A stretch of DNA of 64,000 nt from a virus (Duplodnaviria > Heunggongvirae > Uroviricota > Caudoviricetes), in IMG/VR virus record IMGVR_UViG_3300029305_004380, positions 2,042 through 66,041 of that record; one strand, written 5' to 3'. The translations under genes and the position numbers were made by a program. The notes below the pieces were generated by a model. The model saw only the letters and a program-made list of their open reading frames with translations, did not search any database and had not been told where the DNA came from. Of this stretch, positions 3,943 to 43,159 are shown one piece after another (within the stretch, counting starts at the first letter, position 1; the number at the start of each line of letters is the position of its first letter).

Positions 3943-4380
3943 TTAAATATTATTTATTTCTTTTGCGACTAATTTGTATTTAAAATTATCATTTTTATAT
4001 AATAACTGAATTGTTTGTAAAGCTTCATCATAACTCATCAGTTTTGCCTTTTCTTTATCTCTGGTCCAAATAACTTCATTGCAATCATTTAAATTAACAT
4101 TTTGAAATATAGATTGTATATTAAACAAATATAAAATTTCATCTGTATTAGCAGTATTCACTACGCAATATGATTTACCTTCTTTTTCTTCTATTGGTTC
4201 ATCATTTATATTATTTTTCAATATTAGTTGTTTTATGTTATTCAATATATTTAATGTTTTATTGAGTGACTCTAATTCAGTTTGAGCAACATTAGGTTTA
4301 ACCATTGCTCTTTCAATAGATATGTTTATCTTTTTTAATTGTTTATTTATATAATTAAGTTCTTCATTAAAATTTATCAT
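3943..4380 (-). CDS. hypothetical protein (145 aa)
   Basis: ORF track. Confidence 0.5.
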   Translation of the reverse strand: MINFNEELNYINKQLKKINISIERAMVKPNVAQTELESLNKTLNILNNIKQLILKNNINDEPIEEKEGKSYCVVNTANTDEILYLFNIQSIFQNVNLNDCNEVIWTRDKEKAKLMSYDEALQTIQLLYKNDNFKYKLVAKEINNI

Positions 4381-4406: not shown

Positions 4407-4607
4407 TTATATTCTTTCCCACCAATTTTCAGGAATTTTATAGTGCCATTTACAATTAGAACAATTTTCTTTATTTTTACAATTAAGACAAATGATGTTT
4501 GAAGCTTCCTGTAATAAACTTGCTATATCTAATAGAATACCTGAATCAGGAGGACTAACATCATCAAAATCTTTTTCTAAATAATTTATTGCTTCTTCAA
4601 CTTTCAT
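4407..4607 (-). CDS. small Cys-rich protein (66 aa)
   Basis: ORF track; CLNCKNKENCSNCKWH cluster. Confidence 0.45.
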   Translation of the reverse strand: MKVEEAINYLEKDFDDVSPPDSGILLDIASLLQEASNIICLNCKNKENCSNCKWHYKIPENWWERI

Positions 4608-4818: not shown

Positions 4819-5341
4819 CTATTTTTATTTTTCTAATAGATACTTTCATCTTACTATATATTTTGGCTTGTCTTGCTTGTTCTTCAGCTTCAACCTCTCT
4901 ATTATACAATATAGCATCTTTAATATCGGTAGATAAAAACGTATCAAAACTTTTTACATCTTTTTGACTAAAATATTTTAACATTCCATGTTCCACCGTT
5001 GTAAGAATATATCTTGTCATCTCTGTATTAATATTACCTGAAGATACTTCTCTTGGAATTAATTCTACTTTATCCATAAGATATTGTCTATTTGTTTCTG
5101 AAAGCCAAAGATTAATAAGCCCATAAGTTTTAGAATCTTCAACCACTAATTTTTCAATAGGCTTAATAAATCTTTGTATGCCATTTAAAAATTTAGAATT
5201 AATGGTTTCTATTTCGTATTCTTGAATAGTATGTTTAGCATCATCAATTGTCTTACACCATACTACTTCATCAAGATTATTTTGAAGATTAGGTACTTCA
5301 TTTGATATCCAAATTGTTTGTGTATGTTCTATAGTATTCAT
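4793..5341 (-). CDS. hypothetical protein (182 aa)
   Basis: ORF track. Confidence 0.5.
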   Translation of the reverse strand: MNTIEHTQTIWISNEVPNLQNNLDEVVWCKTIDDAKHTIQEYEIETINSKFLNGIQRFIKPIEKLVVEDSKTYGLINLWLSETNRQYLMDKVELIPREVSSGNINTEMTRYILTTVEHGMLKYFSQKDVKSFDTFLSTDIKDAILYNREVEAEEQARQAKIYSKMKVSIRKIKIDAKINYIY

Positions 5342-5608
5342 TTAATTAAGTCCCCATTTCTTATAAAATTTATTTAAATCATCGTCTGTAATTTTAATTT
5401 TATGTCTAATAAAGTCGCTAGTTACATCATTCATTGCTTCTTTTATTTCATTTATAGTTTTAAACACTTTTCTTAAACGTCCGTTACTATCAAATGCATA
5501 CCGCTCATTGAGAGTAACAATATACAATGGATTTGTTTTATAAATAACAACTTCTATCTTTTTAACTCGTTTATCATCTTTATATAAATCACGCATTAAC
5601 ATTAACAA
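5342..5608 (-). CDS. hypothetical protein (88 aa)
   Basis: ORF track. Confidence 0.5.
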   Translation of the reverse strand: MLMLMRDLYKDDKRVKKIEVVIYKTNPLYIVTLNERYAFDSNGRLRKVFKTINEIKEAMNDVTSDFIRHKIKITDDDLNKFYKKWGLN

Positions 5609-7084: not shown

Positions 7085-7267
7085 TTATTTCTTAGACACC
7101 CATGTTTCAGAGTCTAATAAGATTACATTTTGTACTATTAACTCATCATTTTCAGAAATAATTACTAGATTTCCATCTGTATAATACCAATGGGTAACGT
7201 TGTCAAAAATATCTTTATGAATTTCACATTCAGAATAATAAGTAATTTTTAAAGTCATTTTTACCAC
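7085..7267 (-). CDS. hypothetical protein (60 aa)
   Basis: ORF track. Confidence 0.4.
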   Translation of the reverse strand: MVKMTLKITYYSECEIHKDIFDNVTHWYYTDGNLVIISENDELIVQNVILLDSETWVSKK

Positions 7268-7695
7268 TCCATATCTAAAAGTTTGAAAATATATTTATTG
7301 AGATGTAAATCGTCATCGGTGATTTTATCATATACCACCATTCCAATTAAAGCTGATGCTAAACTATGAAATGCTCTCGAAATTGATTTATATTTAATAT
7401 GTGGATAATATAAACCATCTTCACCTTTAATAATCTGGTATCTATTACTAATAGCAATATATTCATCAACTTTATGAAAACGTCTAAATTCCGAAACAGC
7501 ATATTCTTTACCGTTAGCTGAACCAGCAATTTTTACTTCATCTTCCGGATTTTCAACAGTTGCTAATTCTTCTTCATAATAAGAGCCATAACCTGCAGGA
7601 TAAAACTTATAAATCGTATTTCCATTATGTTTCTTTTCAATAAGTTTTCCAACTTTATCTTTATATACTACTATATCTTTATAAATATTATCCAT
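7261..7695 (-). CDS. hypothetical protein (144 aa)
   Basis: ORF track. Confidence 0.5.
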   Translation of the reverse strand: MDNIYKDIVVYKDKVGKLIEKKHNGNTIYKFYPAGYGSYYEEELATVENPEDEVKIAGSANGKEYAVSEFRRFHKVDEYIAISNRYQIIKGEDGLYYPHIKYKSISRAFHSLASALIGMVVYDKITDDDLHLNKYIFKLLDMEW

Positions 7696-8221
7696 TCAAT
7701 GCACTCTCCATTTCATCTAATTCATGCACTATCTGTTCATATAACTCATTATTTATAATCTGTTTAATATCTAAATTATTATCAAAGAATTTATTTTTTA
7801 CATTGATAAATAAATCTATAATAGCTCCGTCAAAATTAAATCCAAATGCTCTTTCAGCCTCTATAGGTGATACTAATCTCGATAAACAAAGTAAATAATT
7901 CAATATTGCAGTAATTATAATTCTTTCATCATTATTTATTTCTTTTTCTTCAGAAATAACATTATCCGGATGAGTAAAGTAAGCATATATCTTATCATCA
8001 AGTTTAATACCACCAGGTGCAATATCAGGTTTTGTTCTTAATTCATATCTATAACCCATATTTTGAAATTTTAAAATATATTTAGCAAATGACCCACAAC
8101 CGGTTTCTGTAAATTCAACATTAAATCTATGTTTATTAGCATATTCAAAATCATCTTCATCTAAAAAACAAGAGTTTACAAATAGTGTTTCATTATCTTC
8201 TAACAATTTATAATTATGCAT
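7688..8221 (-). CDS. hypothetical protein (177 aa)
   Basis: ORF track. Confidence 0.5.
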   Translation of the reverse strand: MHNYKLLEDNETLFVNSCFLDEDDFEYANKHRFNVEFTETGCGSFAKYILKFQNMGYRYELRTKPDIAPGGIKLDDKIYAYFTHPDNVISEEKEINNDERIIITAILNYLLCLSRLVSPIEAERAFGFNFDGAIIDLFINVKNKFFDNNLDIKQIINNELYEQIVHELDEMESALNG

Positions 8222-11271: not shown

Positions 11272-12525
11272 TCACTCCGATGACTTAAAATTATATACAG
11301 GCTTAATAAGCTTTATAATCTCTACTGTATCTTCAATATTATTTACAATATCATTAATATTCTTATATGCTTGAGGAGATTCATCGAGAGTACCTTCATT
11401 AATACATGTAGAATAAATACCTGTCATAGATTCTGCAAAATCAGAAAGACTAATAGTTTCTTTAGCTTTACCTCTACTCATTAATCTACCAGCACCATGA
11501 GGAGCTGAATTATTGTAATCCTCGTTTCCTTTACCTTTACAAATAAGAACTCCATCTCTCATATTAATAGGAATAACTAACATTTGTCCTTCATAAGCAG
11601 CGACCGCACCTTTTCTAATTATGTTATCATCTCCAATATAATTATGAATCGTATCAAACCATTCGGTCTTAATATTATATTTCCCTTTTTGTTTAATTCT
11701 TAACTTTCCACTAGTAGATAATTGAACTTGACAATCATTGAAATAATTCTTTATAAGTTCTTCAGCGATTGTAAATCTATTCAGTGCAGCGTATTTCTGA
11801 CAAATTCTCATATCATGTAAATATTTATCTTTATCTTCACCAATAAGATAAAGTAAATTTTTAGGAATCTTATCTAACTTTGACTTATAATTATTTATGG
11901 CTTCTTGAATATCAGATTCCCTTCCAGATGCTTTCATTTCTGCTATTAAGGAATTTATATTATTCTTATCTTCTTCCTTTCCAGCTTTATTTTGATAATA
12001 CTTACATACGTCTAATCCTAAATGTCTAGAACCAGTATGAATCATAAGATATTTGTTTCCTTCAAAATCTTCATCAATTTCACAAAAATGATTCCCCGAA
12101 CCAAGCGAGCCGATAGCTCTTAATACTTTATCATATTGATGTTTTACCACATCTTTATAACAATACATATTTTCAAGTTCGTCAAATTTCTTTTTCTGTT
12201 TTGAATTAACTTCAAATCCGAAAGCAACATTTTCACGAAGTATTTTATCAAATCTCTTATAATCTATATCAACATTTCCTAATGGAATTGTTAGTACACC
12301 ACAACCAATATCGACTCCAACTAAATTAGGAACTACTTTATCTCCTAAATTAGCTGTAAATCCTATAACACATCCTGCTCCAGCGTGACAATCAGGTTGA
12401 ATTCTTATTTTACAACCTTCAACAAAAGGCTGATTTAATAATTGTATTATCTGACATATACACTCATCTTCTATAACATCTGTAAATACTTTAGCAGTAC
12501 CATATTTTCCTTTAAGTTCTAACAT
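11272..12525 (-). CDS. rtcB: RtcB-family RNA 3'-phosphate/5'-OH ligase (417 aa after start trimming)
   Basis: RtcB signatures QPDCHAGAGCVIG, VGVDIGCGV and GSGNHFCEID. The start is reassigned to the ATG at 12525 (MLELKGK...), which has a GGAGG ribosome-binding site and overlaps the stop of the upstream gene. The ORF-track N-terminus at 12570 is a read-through artefact. Confidence 0.85.
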   Translation of the reverse strand: MLELKGKYGTAKVFTDVIEDECICQIIQLLNQPFVEGCKIRIQPDCHAGAGCVIGFTANLGDKVVPNLVGVDIGCGVLTIPLGNVDIDYKRFDKILRENVAFGFEVNSKQKKKFDELENMYCYKDVVKHQYDKVLRAIGSLGSGNHFCEIDEDFEGNKYLMIHTGSRHLGLDVCKYYQNKAGKEEDKNNINSLIAEMKASGRESDIQEAINNYKSKLDKIPKNLLYLIGEDKDKYLHDMRICQKYAALNRFTIAEELIKNYFNDCQVQLSTSGKLRIKQKGKYNIKTEWFDTIHNYIGDDNIIRKGAVAAYEGQMLVIPINMRDGVLICKGKGNEDYNNSAPHGAGRLMSRGKAKETISLSDFAESMTGIYSTCINEGTLDESPQAYKNINDIVNNIEDTVEIIKLIKPVYNFKSSE

Positions 12526-12526
12526 T

Positions 12527-12838
12527 TTATTCCTCCACTTTTGTAGGTTTATAAAGAGTAGCATCTTCAAGTTCTTCTAAATCGTAAATAATGCTATTAA
12601 GTTTATCTATTACAAGTTCATTAACTTTAAATCCATTTTTATCAATAATACGTTTATCATAACTTATATGATGAATAGCTTCATCTATTCGGCTATATGC
12701 TTCTTTTATTAACCCTTTATATTTTTTATTTTCATTTTCATCTCTTGGAGTTATTTCATAAGCTTTCATAATGTTAATCCTCTCTATAATAAATTCTATA
12801 ATTTTTAAATATAACTCTATTAATAAGTTTAGTCCCAA
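12527..12838 (-). CDS. hypothetical protein (103 aa)
   Basis: ORF track; its stop abuts the rtcB start. Confidence 0.5.
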   Translation of the reverse strand: MGLNLLIELYLKIIEFIIERINIMKAYEITPRDENENKKYKGLIKEAYSRIDEAIHHISYDKRIIDKNGFKVNELVIDKLNSIIYDLEELEDATLYKPTKVEE

Positions 12839-34512: not shown

Positions 34513-34527
34513 ATATTATTTAAAAAC

Positions 34528-34567
34528 AAAAAATAAACCTCATTTTATATGAGGTTTATTTTTTTGG
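34528..34567 (-). terminator. intrinsic terminator (AAACCTCAT / ATGAGGTTT) with A7 and T7 flanks
   Basis: A 9 bp stem and 5 nt loop. It is bidirectional and sits between the tRNA region and gene 34512. Confidence 0.6.
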
Positions 34568-34803
34568 ATAAATTGTAAGTGGATAACAGTTAGAGTCTTC
34601 AAGGTTTTAAGCCTTGAGCTATTGAGCATTAGCCGTATTTTTAACAAAGACTCATGTATAATGAATATTATGTGAAAGAATAAGTATAGCAAAGTAAAAA
34701 CCATAACTTATTTTAATACAAAAAATGGTTGTATGTTAAAACCACACAATGTTTATTTAGAAAGGAATGCAAAATAATGTATTTAAATCACATAATATTC
34801 ATT

Positions 34804-34930
34804 TGGTCGGAATTAAGAGATTCGAACTCTTCTTAATAAATTAATTGTCAAATACAAAATTTTTAAAGGGGAAGTTTCATTTAGTATATTTTAATTTATT
34901 AAGTGTATAACCACTTTATACCTAATTCCG
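34804..34930 (-). ncRNA. aberrant tRNA-like element: intact acceptor stem, D-arm and T-arm with CCA, but a 13 bp helix plus 46 nt loop where the anticodon arm should be
   Basis: Minus-strand read: CGGAATT-AG-GTAT-AAAGTGGTT-ATAC-A-[CTTAATAAATTAA ...46 nt... TTAATTTATTAAG]-AAGAG-TTCGAAT-CTCTT-AATTCCG-A-CCA. The 7 bp acceptor is perfectly paired and the T-loop is canonical. No 5+7+5 anticodon arm can be drawn. Confidence 0.4.
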
Positions 34931-35097: not shown

Positions 35098-35186
35098 TGG
35101 TGCAAGAGAAGGGATTCGAACCCTCAATTCCTCACGGACGACGGATTTTAAGTCCGTTGCATATACCAAAATTCTGCCACTCTTGC
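35098..35186 (-). tRNA. tRNA-Leu (anticodon UAA), type II with long variable arm, CCA encoded
   Basis: Manual cloverleaf. Acceptor GCAAGAG/CTCTTGC, 3 bp D-stem, anticodon stem ACGGA/TCCGT, loop CT-TAA-AA, 15 nt variable arm, T-arm GAGGG-TTCGAAT-CCCTT, discriminator A, CCA. Length 89 nt. Confidence 0.85.
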
Positions 35187-35359
35187 ATGTAAATCATAAG
35201 AATCACCCACTAATTATTAAATAATAACCACTACATTTATATTTAATAATTGCCCACTATCTTACATTAAATCTCTAAAGATTCTACCCGTATGCTTTAT
35301 TAATTAAAAAAGTTGAACAGAAAAAATGAAACAAAGCTATTCATATTACTATGAATATT

Positions 35360-35433
35360 TGGCTGGGGTAAATGGAATCGAACCAATACTCTAAGAATCA
35401 AAATCTTATGTACTACCGTTATACTATACCCCA
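35360..35433 (-). tRNA. tRNA-Gln (anticodon UUG), CCA encoded
   Basis: Manual cloverleaf. Acceptor TGGGGTA/TACCCCA, D-stem GTAT/GTAC, anticodon stem TAAGA/TCTTA, loop TT-TTG-AT, T-loop TTCGATT, discriminator G, CCA. Length 74 nt. Confidence 0.8.
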
Positions 35434-41857: not shown

Positions 41858-43159
41858 TTAAAAATCAATATTTCTATCTTTAAGTGATTTTTTTATTAAA
41901 TATTTTCTATTAGATAATTGTTTAGGTGTTATATTTAATGTTCCACATATAGTATCAACATCATACGTATTACAATCGTTTAGAAATTGTTTTAATCCTT
42001 CTATGTCATCATATTTAATAGTTGGCTGCCAGTTCTTTGGTCTTTTACCTTTTTTCTTATTTTTATCAGAGACTAATAGTTTATCATTATTCATTTCATT
42101 TTTAGTGTCTACCTCTGGTTTATTTTTTTCGTTATCTATTAAATCTTTATAATTAATACCTTTTCTTTTTAAAAATGATTGTATTGCACTTTTTTTATCA
42201 TAAAGTTTTTGAATATTTTCTAAGTTGTATTTTTTCATACAAGATGCTTTACTCATACTATAATAATCTTTTATAAATTGTGTTGAAAATTCAATTGTAT
42301 ATCTTACCGTGTTTGCTTTTCTATTATCTTTTTTCTCAATATCTTCTTCTTTGATTGCTTCATTTGAAGATTTAATTGATTGTTCAAATATATTTTTCGC
42401 AGGAGTTAATGTATTTCCAATAGATTTGTATAAATATATTAAAGAATTTAAAATATCATCTAATTTTTTAGAATTAGCAACATATAAATCTTTTACTATT
42501 TTTAAATCCTCATGAAATGAAACGGTTGACTTATTTGTTTCATCTATCATTGATTTTAAGTTGGTTATATTATCATTTGTGGTTATAAACTTATTTTGTA
42601 TGTCTGTAAAAGAATTAATATAATTAACAGTGTCTCTACTATTCACATTGTTAACGTGTTCTTCATATTTAGTAAATTTATCTTCAATATATTTATCAAA
42701 CTTAGCAGTTTTTTGTTTGATAATTAAATTTAAAGTAGATTCCAGTTTATTTAAAAAATCAAGAGAAGATAATTCCCGTTCTGATATATTTAAATCAAAT
42801 TCTACAGCAAGGGCTATATCTATTTTTTTCATAACTAATTCAGATAATCTACCTATATATTCACCTAAATCATGTTTATTAATACACCTACATTGTTCTA
42901 ATAAAATTACTTGCGGTCTACCTTCAAATTCATAATAAACTTGATATGGTCCTACTGAAGATTTAGGTCTGGTGGTTATAGGAGCTATAGTTACTACATC
43001 ACCTTTTTTATTTCCTATATCATTTGATATAATAACTACTGGTCTTTTTTTACCTTCAATTCTATTAGGTTGTATATCTCCTAAATCATAATAATAAACA
43101 TTTCCTCTACTAAATACGTCCAACATTAATCTTTCTCCTTTGTATAACAATTTATCCAT
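41858..43159 (-). CDS. MazF/PemK/EndoA-family endoribonuclease domain fused to about 300 aa C-terminal extension (433 aa)
   Basis: Residues about 15-125 match the EndoA/MazF family closely: RGNVYYYDLG...GKKRPVVIISNDIGN...VAPIT...VILLEQCRCINK...KIDIALAVEF. The rest is coiled-coil, Lys-rich, with a possible C-terminal HTH. Confidence 0.7.
   Translation of the reverse strand: MDKLLYKGERLMLDVFSRGNVYYYDLGDIQPNRIEGKKRPVVIISNDIGNKKGDVVTIAPITTRPKSSVGPYQVYYEFEGRPQVILLEQCRCINKHDLGEYIGRLSELVMKKIDIALAVEFDLNISERELSSLDFLNKLESTLNLIIKQKTAKFDKYIEDKFTKYEEHVNNVNSRDTVNYINSFTDIQNKFITTNDNITNLKSMIDETNKSTVSFHEDLKIVKDLYVANSKKLDDILNSLIYLYKSIGNTLTPAKNIFEQSIKSSNEAIKEEDIEKKDNRKANTVRYTIEFSTQFIKDYYSMSKASCMKKYNLENIQKLYDKKSAIQSFLKRKGINYKDLIDNEKNKPEVDTKNEMNNDKLLVSDKNKKKGKRPKNWQPTIKYDDIEGLKQFLNDCNTYDVDTICGTLNITPKQLSNRKYLIKKSLKDRNIDF

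Follow-up and report, generated by a model that had tools for sequence, protein, structure and literature searches.

A tRNA-Pro-derived, anticodon-less, tRNA-shaped gene carrying a long hairpin in a phage RNA cluster

Within its tRNA cluster, phage T4 encodes two stable RNAs, species 1 and 2 (rnaC and rnaD), which are small non-tRNA RNAs of unknown function that are co-transcribed and co-processed with the phage tRNAs; they are not known to derive from tRNA-Pro. tRNA-like structures also serve as natural processing signals, as exemplified by tRNA punctuation in mitochondria. The mascRNA of MALAT1 is a further natural signal of this kind (PMC8457004), and in the engineered 'tRNA scaffold' for recombinant RNA, a cargo hairpin replaces the anticodon arm (PMC3401473). 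Bacterial Y RNAs, including YrlA, are tRNA mimics that are bound by Ro60 (Chen et al. 2014, PMC4201824); some of them are substrates of RNase P as well as of the CCA-adding enzyme, some are encoded by phages, and they are often linked to RtcB operons (PMC4201824). In YrlA, modules resembling the D arm, the T arm and the acceptor are carried on a long helix at the site of the anticodon arm. In the tRNA-like domain of tmRNA, an acceptor/T-arm minihelix with a CCA end is joined to a long helix (P2).

RNAs that mimic tRNAs or derive from them are already known, and the phage element described here adds a variant in which a hairpin stands where the anticodon would be; literature searches yielded no account of an element like it. 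With the tRNA scaffold and the natural processing signals it shares a foreign helix placed on a tRNA body at the site of the anticodon stem. Those precedents are artificial or eukaryotic, unlike the phage element, and in them this design confers RNase P and 3' processing as well as nuclease resistance; for the phage element, such processing and stability would be predicted from its sequence determinants.

The element lies in a 64,000-nt stretch of phage DNA (hereafter, the window), which has a G+C content of 25% and carries all of its large ORFs on the minus strand. The window encodes RtcB, a MazF/PemK-domain fusion protein, an NAD-dependent ligase, SbcCD-like proteins, RecA, ThyX, a dUTPase and a TET-associated glycosyltransferase-like protein. 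The nearest cultured relatives of the phage show only ~32% identity in a helicase, and homologues of a neighbouring 172-aa protein are found in a family of gut phages of ~200 kb. The element is part of a non-coding stretch of ~1.1 kb that comprises, in the order of transcription, tRNA-Gln(UUG), tRNA-Leu(UAA), a 167-nt spacer, the element, two structured regions termed domains A and B, and a terminator. The first gene of this cluster, tRNA-Gln(UUG) (35360..35433, minus strand; Rfam 63 bits), and tRNA-Leu(UAA) (35098..35186, minus strand; Rfam 57 bits), which lies upstream of the element in the same orientation, were both called by ARAGORN as well, which confirms the two neighbours named in an earlier, sequence-only reading of the locus. 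Domain A (34660..34803, minus strand) is a structured RNA that begins one base after the CCA of the element and has a 16-bp closing stem and a multi-branch core. In domain B (34593..34653, minus strand), a 7-bp stem encloses a D-arm-like hairpin and the hairpin CAAGG-CUUAAAA-CCUUG, the loop of which is identical to the anticodon loop of tRNA-Leu(UAA). The cluster is closed by an intrinsic terminator (34528..34564, minus strand), a 16-bp stem followed by a T run, and this is the only terminator-like site between 34300 and 35800. The stretch from 34520 to 34805 folds at -65.2 kcal/mol, with z = -7.0 relative to shuffled sequences.

The tRNA-like element itself comprises 127 nt on the minus strand (34804..34930), with the 5' end of the RNA at 34930 and the 3' end at 34804, and reads CGGAATT AG GTAT AAAGTGGTT ATAC A, CTTAATAAATTAA, 46 nt, TTAATTTATTAAG, AAGAG TTCGAAT CTCTT AATTCCG A CCA. 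The 5' strand of the acceptor stem, CGGAATT (34924..34930), begins with C1 G2 G3, which is of the proline type, and forms seven Watson-Crick pairs with 34808-34814; the 3' strand AATTCCG is followed by the discriminator A73 and an encoded CCA (34804..34814). The D arm, GTAT-AAAGTGGTT-ATAC (34905..34921), has a 4-bp stem, contains G18 and G19, and is preceded by A8 and G9. The T arm, AAGAG-TTCGAAT-CTCTT (34815..34831), has a 5-bp stem and a canonical TTCGAAT loop with T54, T55, C56 and A58. Between these two arms lies a perfect 13-bp inverted repeat made up of CTTAATAAATTAA (34891..34903) and TTAATTTATTAAG (34832..34844), the latter placed directly against the T stem without a linker. The inner 46 nt (34845..34890) form, in the minimum free energy (MFE) fold, two predicted 4-bp helices and an 18-nt terminal loop. 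All parts named here are on the minus strand.

The 7-bp acceptor, the GG-containing D loop, the TTCGAAT T loop and the encoded CCA reported by the sequence-only reading are all read in the minus-strand sequence, and its perfect 13-bp helix enclosing 46 nt is seen both in the sequence and in the MFE fold. Its figure of 59 nt for the insert corresponds to 13 + 46; the whole replacement is 72 nt, a hairpin that stands in the place of tRNA positions 27-48. The unconstrained MFE fold is exactly the four-way cloverleaf (-23.1 kcal/mol, z = -2.66; 2 of 200 shuffles fold as well), and all 29 base pairs of its four helices are intact. As that reading had also stated, no 5-7-5 anticodon arm can be drawn: neither UGG nor any other anticodon loop with a 5-bp stem is present at the right place. 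Since a long A/U-rich hairpin sits where the anticodon should be, this acceptor/T-arm look-alike cannot decode. A possible 7-nt loop, CUUCCCC (34874-34868, minus strand), can be drawn within the 18-nt terminal loop; it is closed by three A-U pairs only, lies ~24 bp away from the junction, and cannot serve as an anticodon.

The core residues of the element are unusual. Position 8 is A, where U is near-universal, position 21 is U, which is normally A, position 15 is A, and there is no position 48; U8, A21 and the 15-48 pair of a canonical elongator tRNA are absent. The variable loop is also missing, and the long helix meets the T stem directly. The G+C content of the tRNA-like core is 36%, as in the tRNAs of the same phage, and that of the insert is 17%, resembling spacer DNA. 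The insert is not repeated elsewhere, being neither a dispersed repeat nor a miniature transposon, and it matched no known motif. Targets complementary to its C-rich apical loop are not enriched in the window (21 matches vs 15.9 expected). The window contains 9 perfect inverted repeats that are 13 bp or longer and enclose no more than 60 nt, vs 0.27 expected from first-order Markov simulations. When the window was scanned for the combination of a 7-bp acceptor, a 5-bp T stem and a T-loop motif, five matches were obtained in 64 kb, and a TTCGAAT loop together with an ACCA tail occurred only in tRNA-Leu and the element; the other matches were A/T-only with TTTAA-type loops. The arrangement of the element is more than a chance product of A/T-rich DNA.

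The acceptor and T arm also point to the kind of tRNA from which the element is derived. A signature query, GTTCGAATCNNNNAATTCCGACCA, was searched in IMG/VR, in JGI metagenomes and in 185,579 species genomes (one genome each). It opens with the final T-stem base and the six T-loop bases that end the loop, leaves four T-stem positions free, and continues through the 3' strand of the acceptor to A73 and CCA. All 13 matches were ARAGORN tRNA-Pro(UGG) genes of 77-79 nt, mostly located in phage-type tRNA arrays; among the 12 matches listed with sequence, the 5' acceptor strand was CGGAATT in eight and CGGAGTT in four. In bacteria, C1-G72 and A73 are proline determinants, and G35, G36, G37 and the G15-C48 pair are further strong ones (PMC9976931). 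The element has the acceptor determinants C1-G72 and A73; G35, G36, G37 and the G15-C48 pair are missing from it. In the related phage L017, the tRNA calls in the covered part of the cluster end with a canonical tRNA-Pro(UGG). Like the phage tRNA-Pro(UGG) genes in arrays, the element has the same acceptor 3' strand, A73 and CCA, a canonical T loop and a cluster setting; unlike them, it lacks the anticodon arm, the variable loop and G35/G36/G37, and has A8, U21 and the 72-nt hairpin. Its description as a tRNA-Pro-derived, anticodon-less, tRNA-shaped gene is well supported. The earlier proposal of an insertion-disrupted tRNA came near to this, with an acceptor and T arm of the tRNA-Pro(UGG) type and a hairpin that replaces the anticodon arm and the variable loop.

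As to what such a gene would do, we tentatively favour, at a little short of an even chance, a tRNA-Pro-derived non-decoding RNA that would be co-transcribed, matured in a tRNA-like manner and stable, its body acting as a scaffold or punctuation for the hairpin and the adjoining structured RNA. Its source would be a phage tRNA-Pro(UGG) in which the anticodon arm and the variable loop were swapped for the 72-nt A/U-rich hairpin, and in which the parts read by the tRNA maturation machinery (the acceptor/T-arm minihelix, the D arm with G18 and G19, A73 and CCA) were retained; the hairpin would stack at the place of the anticodon stem. Co-transcription with tRNA-Gln and tRNA-Leu, an RNase P cut at C1 and 3' trimming to CCA would probably give a stable RNA of ~127 nt. 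Such an RNA would find no ribosomal use, and its charging by ProRS would be poor at best because it has neither G35, G36 and G37 nor the 15-48 pair. It would be likely to serve as a natural 'tRNA scaffold', in which the tRNA body lends processing and stability to a hairpin payload; alternatively or in addition, it may be a punctuation mark between the tRNAs and domains A and B.

The sequence-only reading had also considered an intron-containing tRNA. From such a pre-tRNA, the insert would be excised, and the phage RtcB ligase would join the halves into a functional tRNA. An RtcB gene is indeed present, and internal tRNA insertions of 40-90 nt are common in distant relatives; this explanation is nevertheless extremely improbable. 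ARAGORN did not call the element as a tRNA with or without intron options, and it called no tmRNA; its intron, overlap and lowered-score options returned only junk calls, at thresholds of 80-90%. The Rfam tRNA model did not match the element at the gathering threshold or even at E<=10, whether 1 kb or 156 nt was searched. Among the other Rfam families at E<=10, a CRISPR-DR5 match was insignificant (17 bits, E=2.5), as was a Plastid-psbl-rps4 match, which is on the opposite strand and merely reads the T arm. Moreover, every contiguous segment of 20-75 nt of the central region was removed and ARAGORN was run on each of the resulting 1708 variants; none was called as a tRNA at the default or the 95% threshold, and the control tRNA-Leu was found. 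When the same deletions were applied to 11 long tRNA-like elements of relatives, 8 of the 11 gave 730-1282 calls each, and three D-arm-less elements gave 0-42 calls. Because most long tRNAs of the relatives give hundreds of calls, the negative result is meaningful, and the element is not a spliceable pre-tRNA. No anticodon loop on a 5-bp stem lies at the right place, and splicing would leave no variable loop. A group I intron was rejected, since the 72-nt insert is far too short, has no group I core and gave no Rfam intron match, and so was a bulge-helix-bulge intron, since all 13 bp of the helix stack without interruption and no 3-nt bulge is present. A Pfam scan of 30 window ORFs (64 kb of genome) detected no splicing endonuclease domain.

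Just as improbable is a view of the element as the tRNA-like domain of a molecule akin to tmRNA or to a Y RNA (YrlA), or as a phage attachment site with a partial host tRNA gene. The acceptor and T-arm features that are kept, together with a long helix at the site of the anticodon arm, are shared with these RNAs (PMC4201824). However, the tmRNA-like domain suggested by the sequence-only reading finds no support: tmRNA is marked by the alanine identity pair G3-U70, by pseudoknots and a tag reading frame, and by the absence of a D stem, whereas the element has G3-C70, a full 4-bp D stem, no pseudoknots and no tag ORF, and was matched by neither ARAGORN's tmRNA search nor an Rfam tmRNA model. The topology of YrlA is permuted, with both RNA termini placed in the long Ro-binding stem and a closed stem-loop as the 'acceptor'; in contrast, the termini of the element are at the acceptor stem and not in the long stem. 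Neither a Ro60 gene nor the GNCGAAN0-1G motif nor an Rfam Y-RNA match was found with the element, and no TROVE/Ro60 domain was detected in the neighbouring ORFs or in the other scanned window ORFs of at least 150 aa. The scanned window ORFs were likewise without a CCA-adding enzyme domain. An attP carrying a host tRNA fragment was rejected because the exact 26-nt 3' half of the element, GAGTTCGAATCTCTTAATTCCGACCA, is absent from all of the 185,579 species genomes, so that the element is no host tRNA fragment of an attachment site, and because both tRNA halves are present in it.

tRNA-like features could also make the RNA a decoy. For anticodon nucleases, the target proposed by the sequence-only reading, the element would be a poor and unlikely decoy because the anticodon loop that such enzymes recognise is missing; the hairpin of domain B, which lies ~150 nt downstream and carries a copy of the tRNA-Leu(UAA) anticodon loop, would suit this idea better. 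That the RNA acts as a decoy or sponge for some factor recognising the acceptor, the T arm or the D loop, and not the anticodon, is distinctly improbable. The determinants in these three parts are intact and include the proline-type C1-G72 and A73 (PMC9976931), the window holds RNA repair and cleavage genes (RtcB and the MazF/PemK-domain protein), and in the relatives L014/L015/L097, RlaP and a CCA-adding enzyme are encoded at the corresponding locus. Set against this, there is no specific partner, conservation is limited to one lineage, a single gene would face the whole cellular tRNA pool, and the best-documented tRNA-directed defences, the anticodon nucleases, are excluded as a target by the lack of an anticodon loop. 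Candidate partners would be ProRS, an enzyme of tRNA modification or processing, or a host toxin by which the acceptor stem or the CCA end is modified or cleaved. The RtcB gene to which the sequence-only reading attached relevance is confirmed (11272..12570), but it is 22 kb from the element and without any link to it.

One independent copy of the element was found, in strain L019 (ENA ERZ27303200, positions 923-1048), where it is ~97% identical; this strain was reached through the single homologue cluster of the downstream 151-aa protein. A second contig, L110, comes from the same sample as the window and hence provides no independent copy. The covariance model R1 detected no further copy in ~1.35 Mb of related loci, only generic tRNA cores. 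The element is missing from the syntenic relative L096, and the L097 contig stops inside tRNA-Leu. Exact and gapped DNA patterns of the element gave no match in IMG/VR, or one chance match in a coding region (L002), and blastn against 50,697 phage records returned matches to the two true tRNAs only. Searches of IMG/VR with single neighbour proteins gave no match, and an alignment-based neighbour-protein search found only relatives at 29-41% identity.

Relative to L019, no change is seen in the 323 nt of the two tRNAs and their spacer, as against 3 in the 127 nt of the element, 14 in the 149 nt of domain A and 2 in the 65 nt of domain B. The changes in the element are an unpaired G9 that becomes U, the closing G-C pair of the D stem that becomes G-U, and a U-run next to a bulge that is shortened by one U; all three are compatible with the fold, with a chance probability of such structure-neutrality of ~0.15-0.2. 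Where only one partner of a predicted pair in domains A and B has changed, pairing is retained in 7 of 7 cases, and several of these pair via a G-U that is possible only in the minus-strand RNA. This pattern, drawn from comparing two sequences, argues that the RNA cluster is expressed as structured RNA.

Non-canonical elements abound in the tRNA clusters of this lineage. In L005/L006, a 74-nt RNA (4293-4366) has an acceptor, a T arm, an ACCA end and a 12-bp A/U helix that abuts the T stem. In L010/L011, a tRNA-Asn gene is interrupted by an Endonuclease_7-type ORF, and what is left of the gene on the 3' side forms a 65-nt acceptor/T-arm mini element (5411-5475); both acceptor strands of this mini element differ together from those of the intact tRNA-Asn of L013. 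A ROOL RNA lies between tRNAs in L017. Among distant IMG/VR relatives, about two dozen elements of roughly 55-170 nt have perfect acceptor and T arms and are missed by ARAGORN. One family in these distant relatives has a conserved hairpin-ACAGCA module with compensatory changes, which either follows the D arm and precedes a normal anticodon arm or is set in frames that lack a D arm, and a second family has a conserved GGGAGUG...UGCUCCC form. Homology of the window insert with these modules was rejected, as nothing is shared beyond CTTAA after position 26.

These comparisons bear on the main rival of the proposed scaffold or punctuation role, namely that the element is a young tRNA-Pro pseudogene, in which recombination or an insertion put spacer-like palindromic DNA into the anticodon region and left a functionless remnant that has not decayed as yet. 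We judge this somewhat unlikely. The element is confined to one lineage, its insert is spacer-like in composition and has no recognisable motif, and the residues A8 and U21, together with the lack of a variable loop, suggest a tRNA core under relaxed constraint. Moreover, relatives (L010/L011) have tRNA genes that an Endonuclease_7-type ORF has physically split, with fragments left behind, and the element has three changes relative to L019 where the true tRNAs and their spacer have none. A functionless remnant is harder to reconcile, however, with 29 of 29 intact helix pairs and a canonical T loop, G18 G19, A73 and CCA, or with a helix that replaces positions 27-48 exactly and in register with the D and T stems. 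All three L019 differences are structure-neutral, the rate of change is ~4x below that of the adjacent domain A, and relatives repeatedly carry elements of an analogous kind. The event behind such a pseudogene could, for example, be tied to the homing-endonuclease traffic and recombination among tRNA genes that is seen in relatives.

The scaffold or punctuation role that we favour draws on the anatomy of the element, its proline signature, the lack of a restorable anticodon arm, the same-strand, RNA-only operon with its terminator, and persistence in L019. Precedents in the lineage (the elements of L005/L006 and L010/L011, and the payloads with covariation in distant relatives) add to it. Several observations count against it. 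The two haplotypes, being ~97% identical and the only ones, offer no real covariation test; model R1 finds no other copy, and the element is absent from L096. The L-shape may not form, given that near-universal core residues give way to A8 and U21 and that a variable loop is lacking. Finally, the insert is spacer-like (17% G+C), motif-free and unrepeated, with no enrichment of targets for its C-rich loop.

Should this RNA be produced in stable form, it would represent a natural analogue of the engineered tRNA scaffold and a further type of viral tRNA mimic that is missed by standard annotation, as ARAGORN and Rfam both fail on it. If it is merely a pseudogene, it would be a record of how fast phage tRNA genes get remodelled. 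It is conceivable, albeit unlikely, that this lineage and its wider relatives routinely use tRNA bodies as scaffolds for the expression and stability of small functional RNAs, and as punctuation for them. The elements of the window, L005/L006 and L010/L011 and the hairpin-ACAGCA and GGGAGUG families would then form one large unannotated class, the payloads of which could have host or phage factors as targets, perhaps within circuits of counter-defence or RNA repair that involve the phage RtcB and MazF-like proteins. In the related loci, non-canonical tRNA-like genes are frequent in the tRNA arrays of low-GC gut and rumen phages; thus, phage 'tRNA clusters' may hide many non-decoding RNAs, and the broader pattern of unannotated tRNA-framed RNAs in phages may be a more valuable lead than the single element.

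The element, a 127-nt anticodon-less tRNA-Pro(UGG)-type gene, is followed on the same strand by two further structured domains and a terminator. Domain A (window 34660-34803, minus strand), about 145 nt of structured RNA, begins one base past the CCA of the element and is closed by a 16-bp stem, AAUGAAUAUUAUGUGA/UCACAUAAUAUUCAUU. When the window is compared with L019, a second strain carrying the element, domain A is the site of greatest divergence (14 events), and all changes within its predicted pairs preserve pairing. Domain B (window 34593-34653, minus strand) is delimited by a 7-bp stem, GAGUCUU/AAGACUC. Within this stem lie two hairpins, one resembling a D arm and the other reading CAAGG-CUUAAAA-CCUUG. 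Because the CUUAAAA loop has the same sequence as the anticodon loop of the adjacent tRNA-Leu(UAA), domain B looks like a tRNA-Leu mimic without a T arm. The sequence-only reading had listed an anticodon-nuclease decoy among the possible roles of the 127-nt element; domain B is the better candidate for such a decoy. A 54-aa ORF (window 34540-34704, minus strand), which overlaps both domains and the terminator, has no PHROG match and is probably not a gene.

Upstream, the spacer between tRNA-Gln and tRNA-Leu (window about 35190-35297) contains three spaced copies of an AGUGGG/GUAGUGG motif, preceded by GGGUAGAAUCUUUAGAGAU. The motif is recognisably kept in relatives whose 172-aa protein, the product of a neighbouring gene, is 84-85% identical (L096 12990-13080; L097 14536-14640), and may serve as a phage promoter or bind a protein.

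Related phages also carry non-canonical elements in or near their tRNAs. At locus L017, a ROOL RNA (7110-7720; Rfam, 263 bits) lies within the tRNA cluster, between tRNA-Asn and tRNA-Pro(UGG). L013 carries a phage gene for a 90-nt tRNA-Asn(GUU) (4859-4948) with a long class II-like variable arm, an unusual feature in asparagine tRNAs. At L010 (4574-5475), and in the same arrangement at L011, an ORF whose product has an Endonuclease_7 domain and zinc fingers breaks a tRNA-Asn-like gene in two. The 3' remnant of that gene at L010 is an acceptor/T-arm mini element, UCCUUUU...AAAAGGA-GCCA (5411-5475), in which both acceptor strands are changed relative to the intact L013 gene. L005 and L006 encode a 74-nt tRNA-like RNA (4293-4366) in which a 12-bp A/U helix replaces the D arm and the anticodon arm; it receives the ARAGORN call 'Phe-AAA' and no Rfam call. 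Elsewhere within L005 3600-5760 there are a weak tRNA at 4470-4544, a T arm standing alone near 4855, and an ORF (5093-5600) framed by GGAGAGU...ACUCUCC-UCCA. Moreover, two T-arm-like sequences, GGGGUUCGAGUCCCU and ACGGUUCGAUUCCGA, occur in tandem at L097 13640-13700, with no recognisable acceptor stems.

In distant relatives, two families combine tRNA-like frames with other sequences. In the first, a conserved hairpin-ACAGCA module sits inserted in tRNA or tRNA-like frames; its hairpin is GAAUCAUG..(G)UGGUUC, after which come AUACAGCA and a UUUUCU tract (L031 16049-16162; L093 15021-15139; L037 6693-6817; L036 15367-15484 and 14981-15079; L060 14841-14957 and 14555-14657; L055 12317-12432 and 11950-12047). 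Compensatory changes occur at three stem positions of the module. Six module-type elements, namely those of L031, L093, L037 and L036 (15367-15484), together with L046 15680-15804 and L060 15133-15266, score in Rfam as tRNA with a large insertion. The second family is highly conserved, 112-114 nt long, and belongs to no Rfam family; a GGGAGUG/UGCUCCC acceptor-like stem and a canonical T arm accompany a payload, about 75 nt long, that is not tRNA (L036 15249-15360; L038 14821-14934; L055 12199-12310; L073 14687-14797; L087 5149-5262; L080 15436-15549).

Genes for RNA enzymes are present in the window and in relatives. In the closest relatives by the 172-aa protein, genes for an RlaP nucleotidyltransferase and a CCA-adding enzyme lie between the gene for that protein and the tRNAs (L014 4998-7470; L015 2242-4680; L097 10998-13470); the same position in the window is occupied by the cluster of tRNAs and non-coding RNAs. 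Conserved across the phage family of the window is a PemK/MazF-domain protein (window 41858-43159, minus strand; L096 3329-4402; L097 3071-4249), which carries the toxin domain at its N terminus and a long extension at its C terminus, and whose gene adjoins SbcCD-like genes. This protein and RtcB (window 11272-12570) would form a cleave-and-ligate pair of RNA enzymes.
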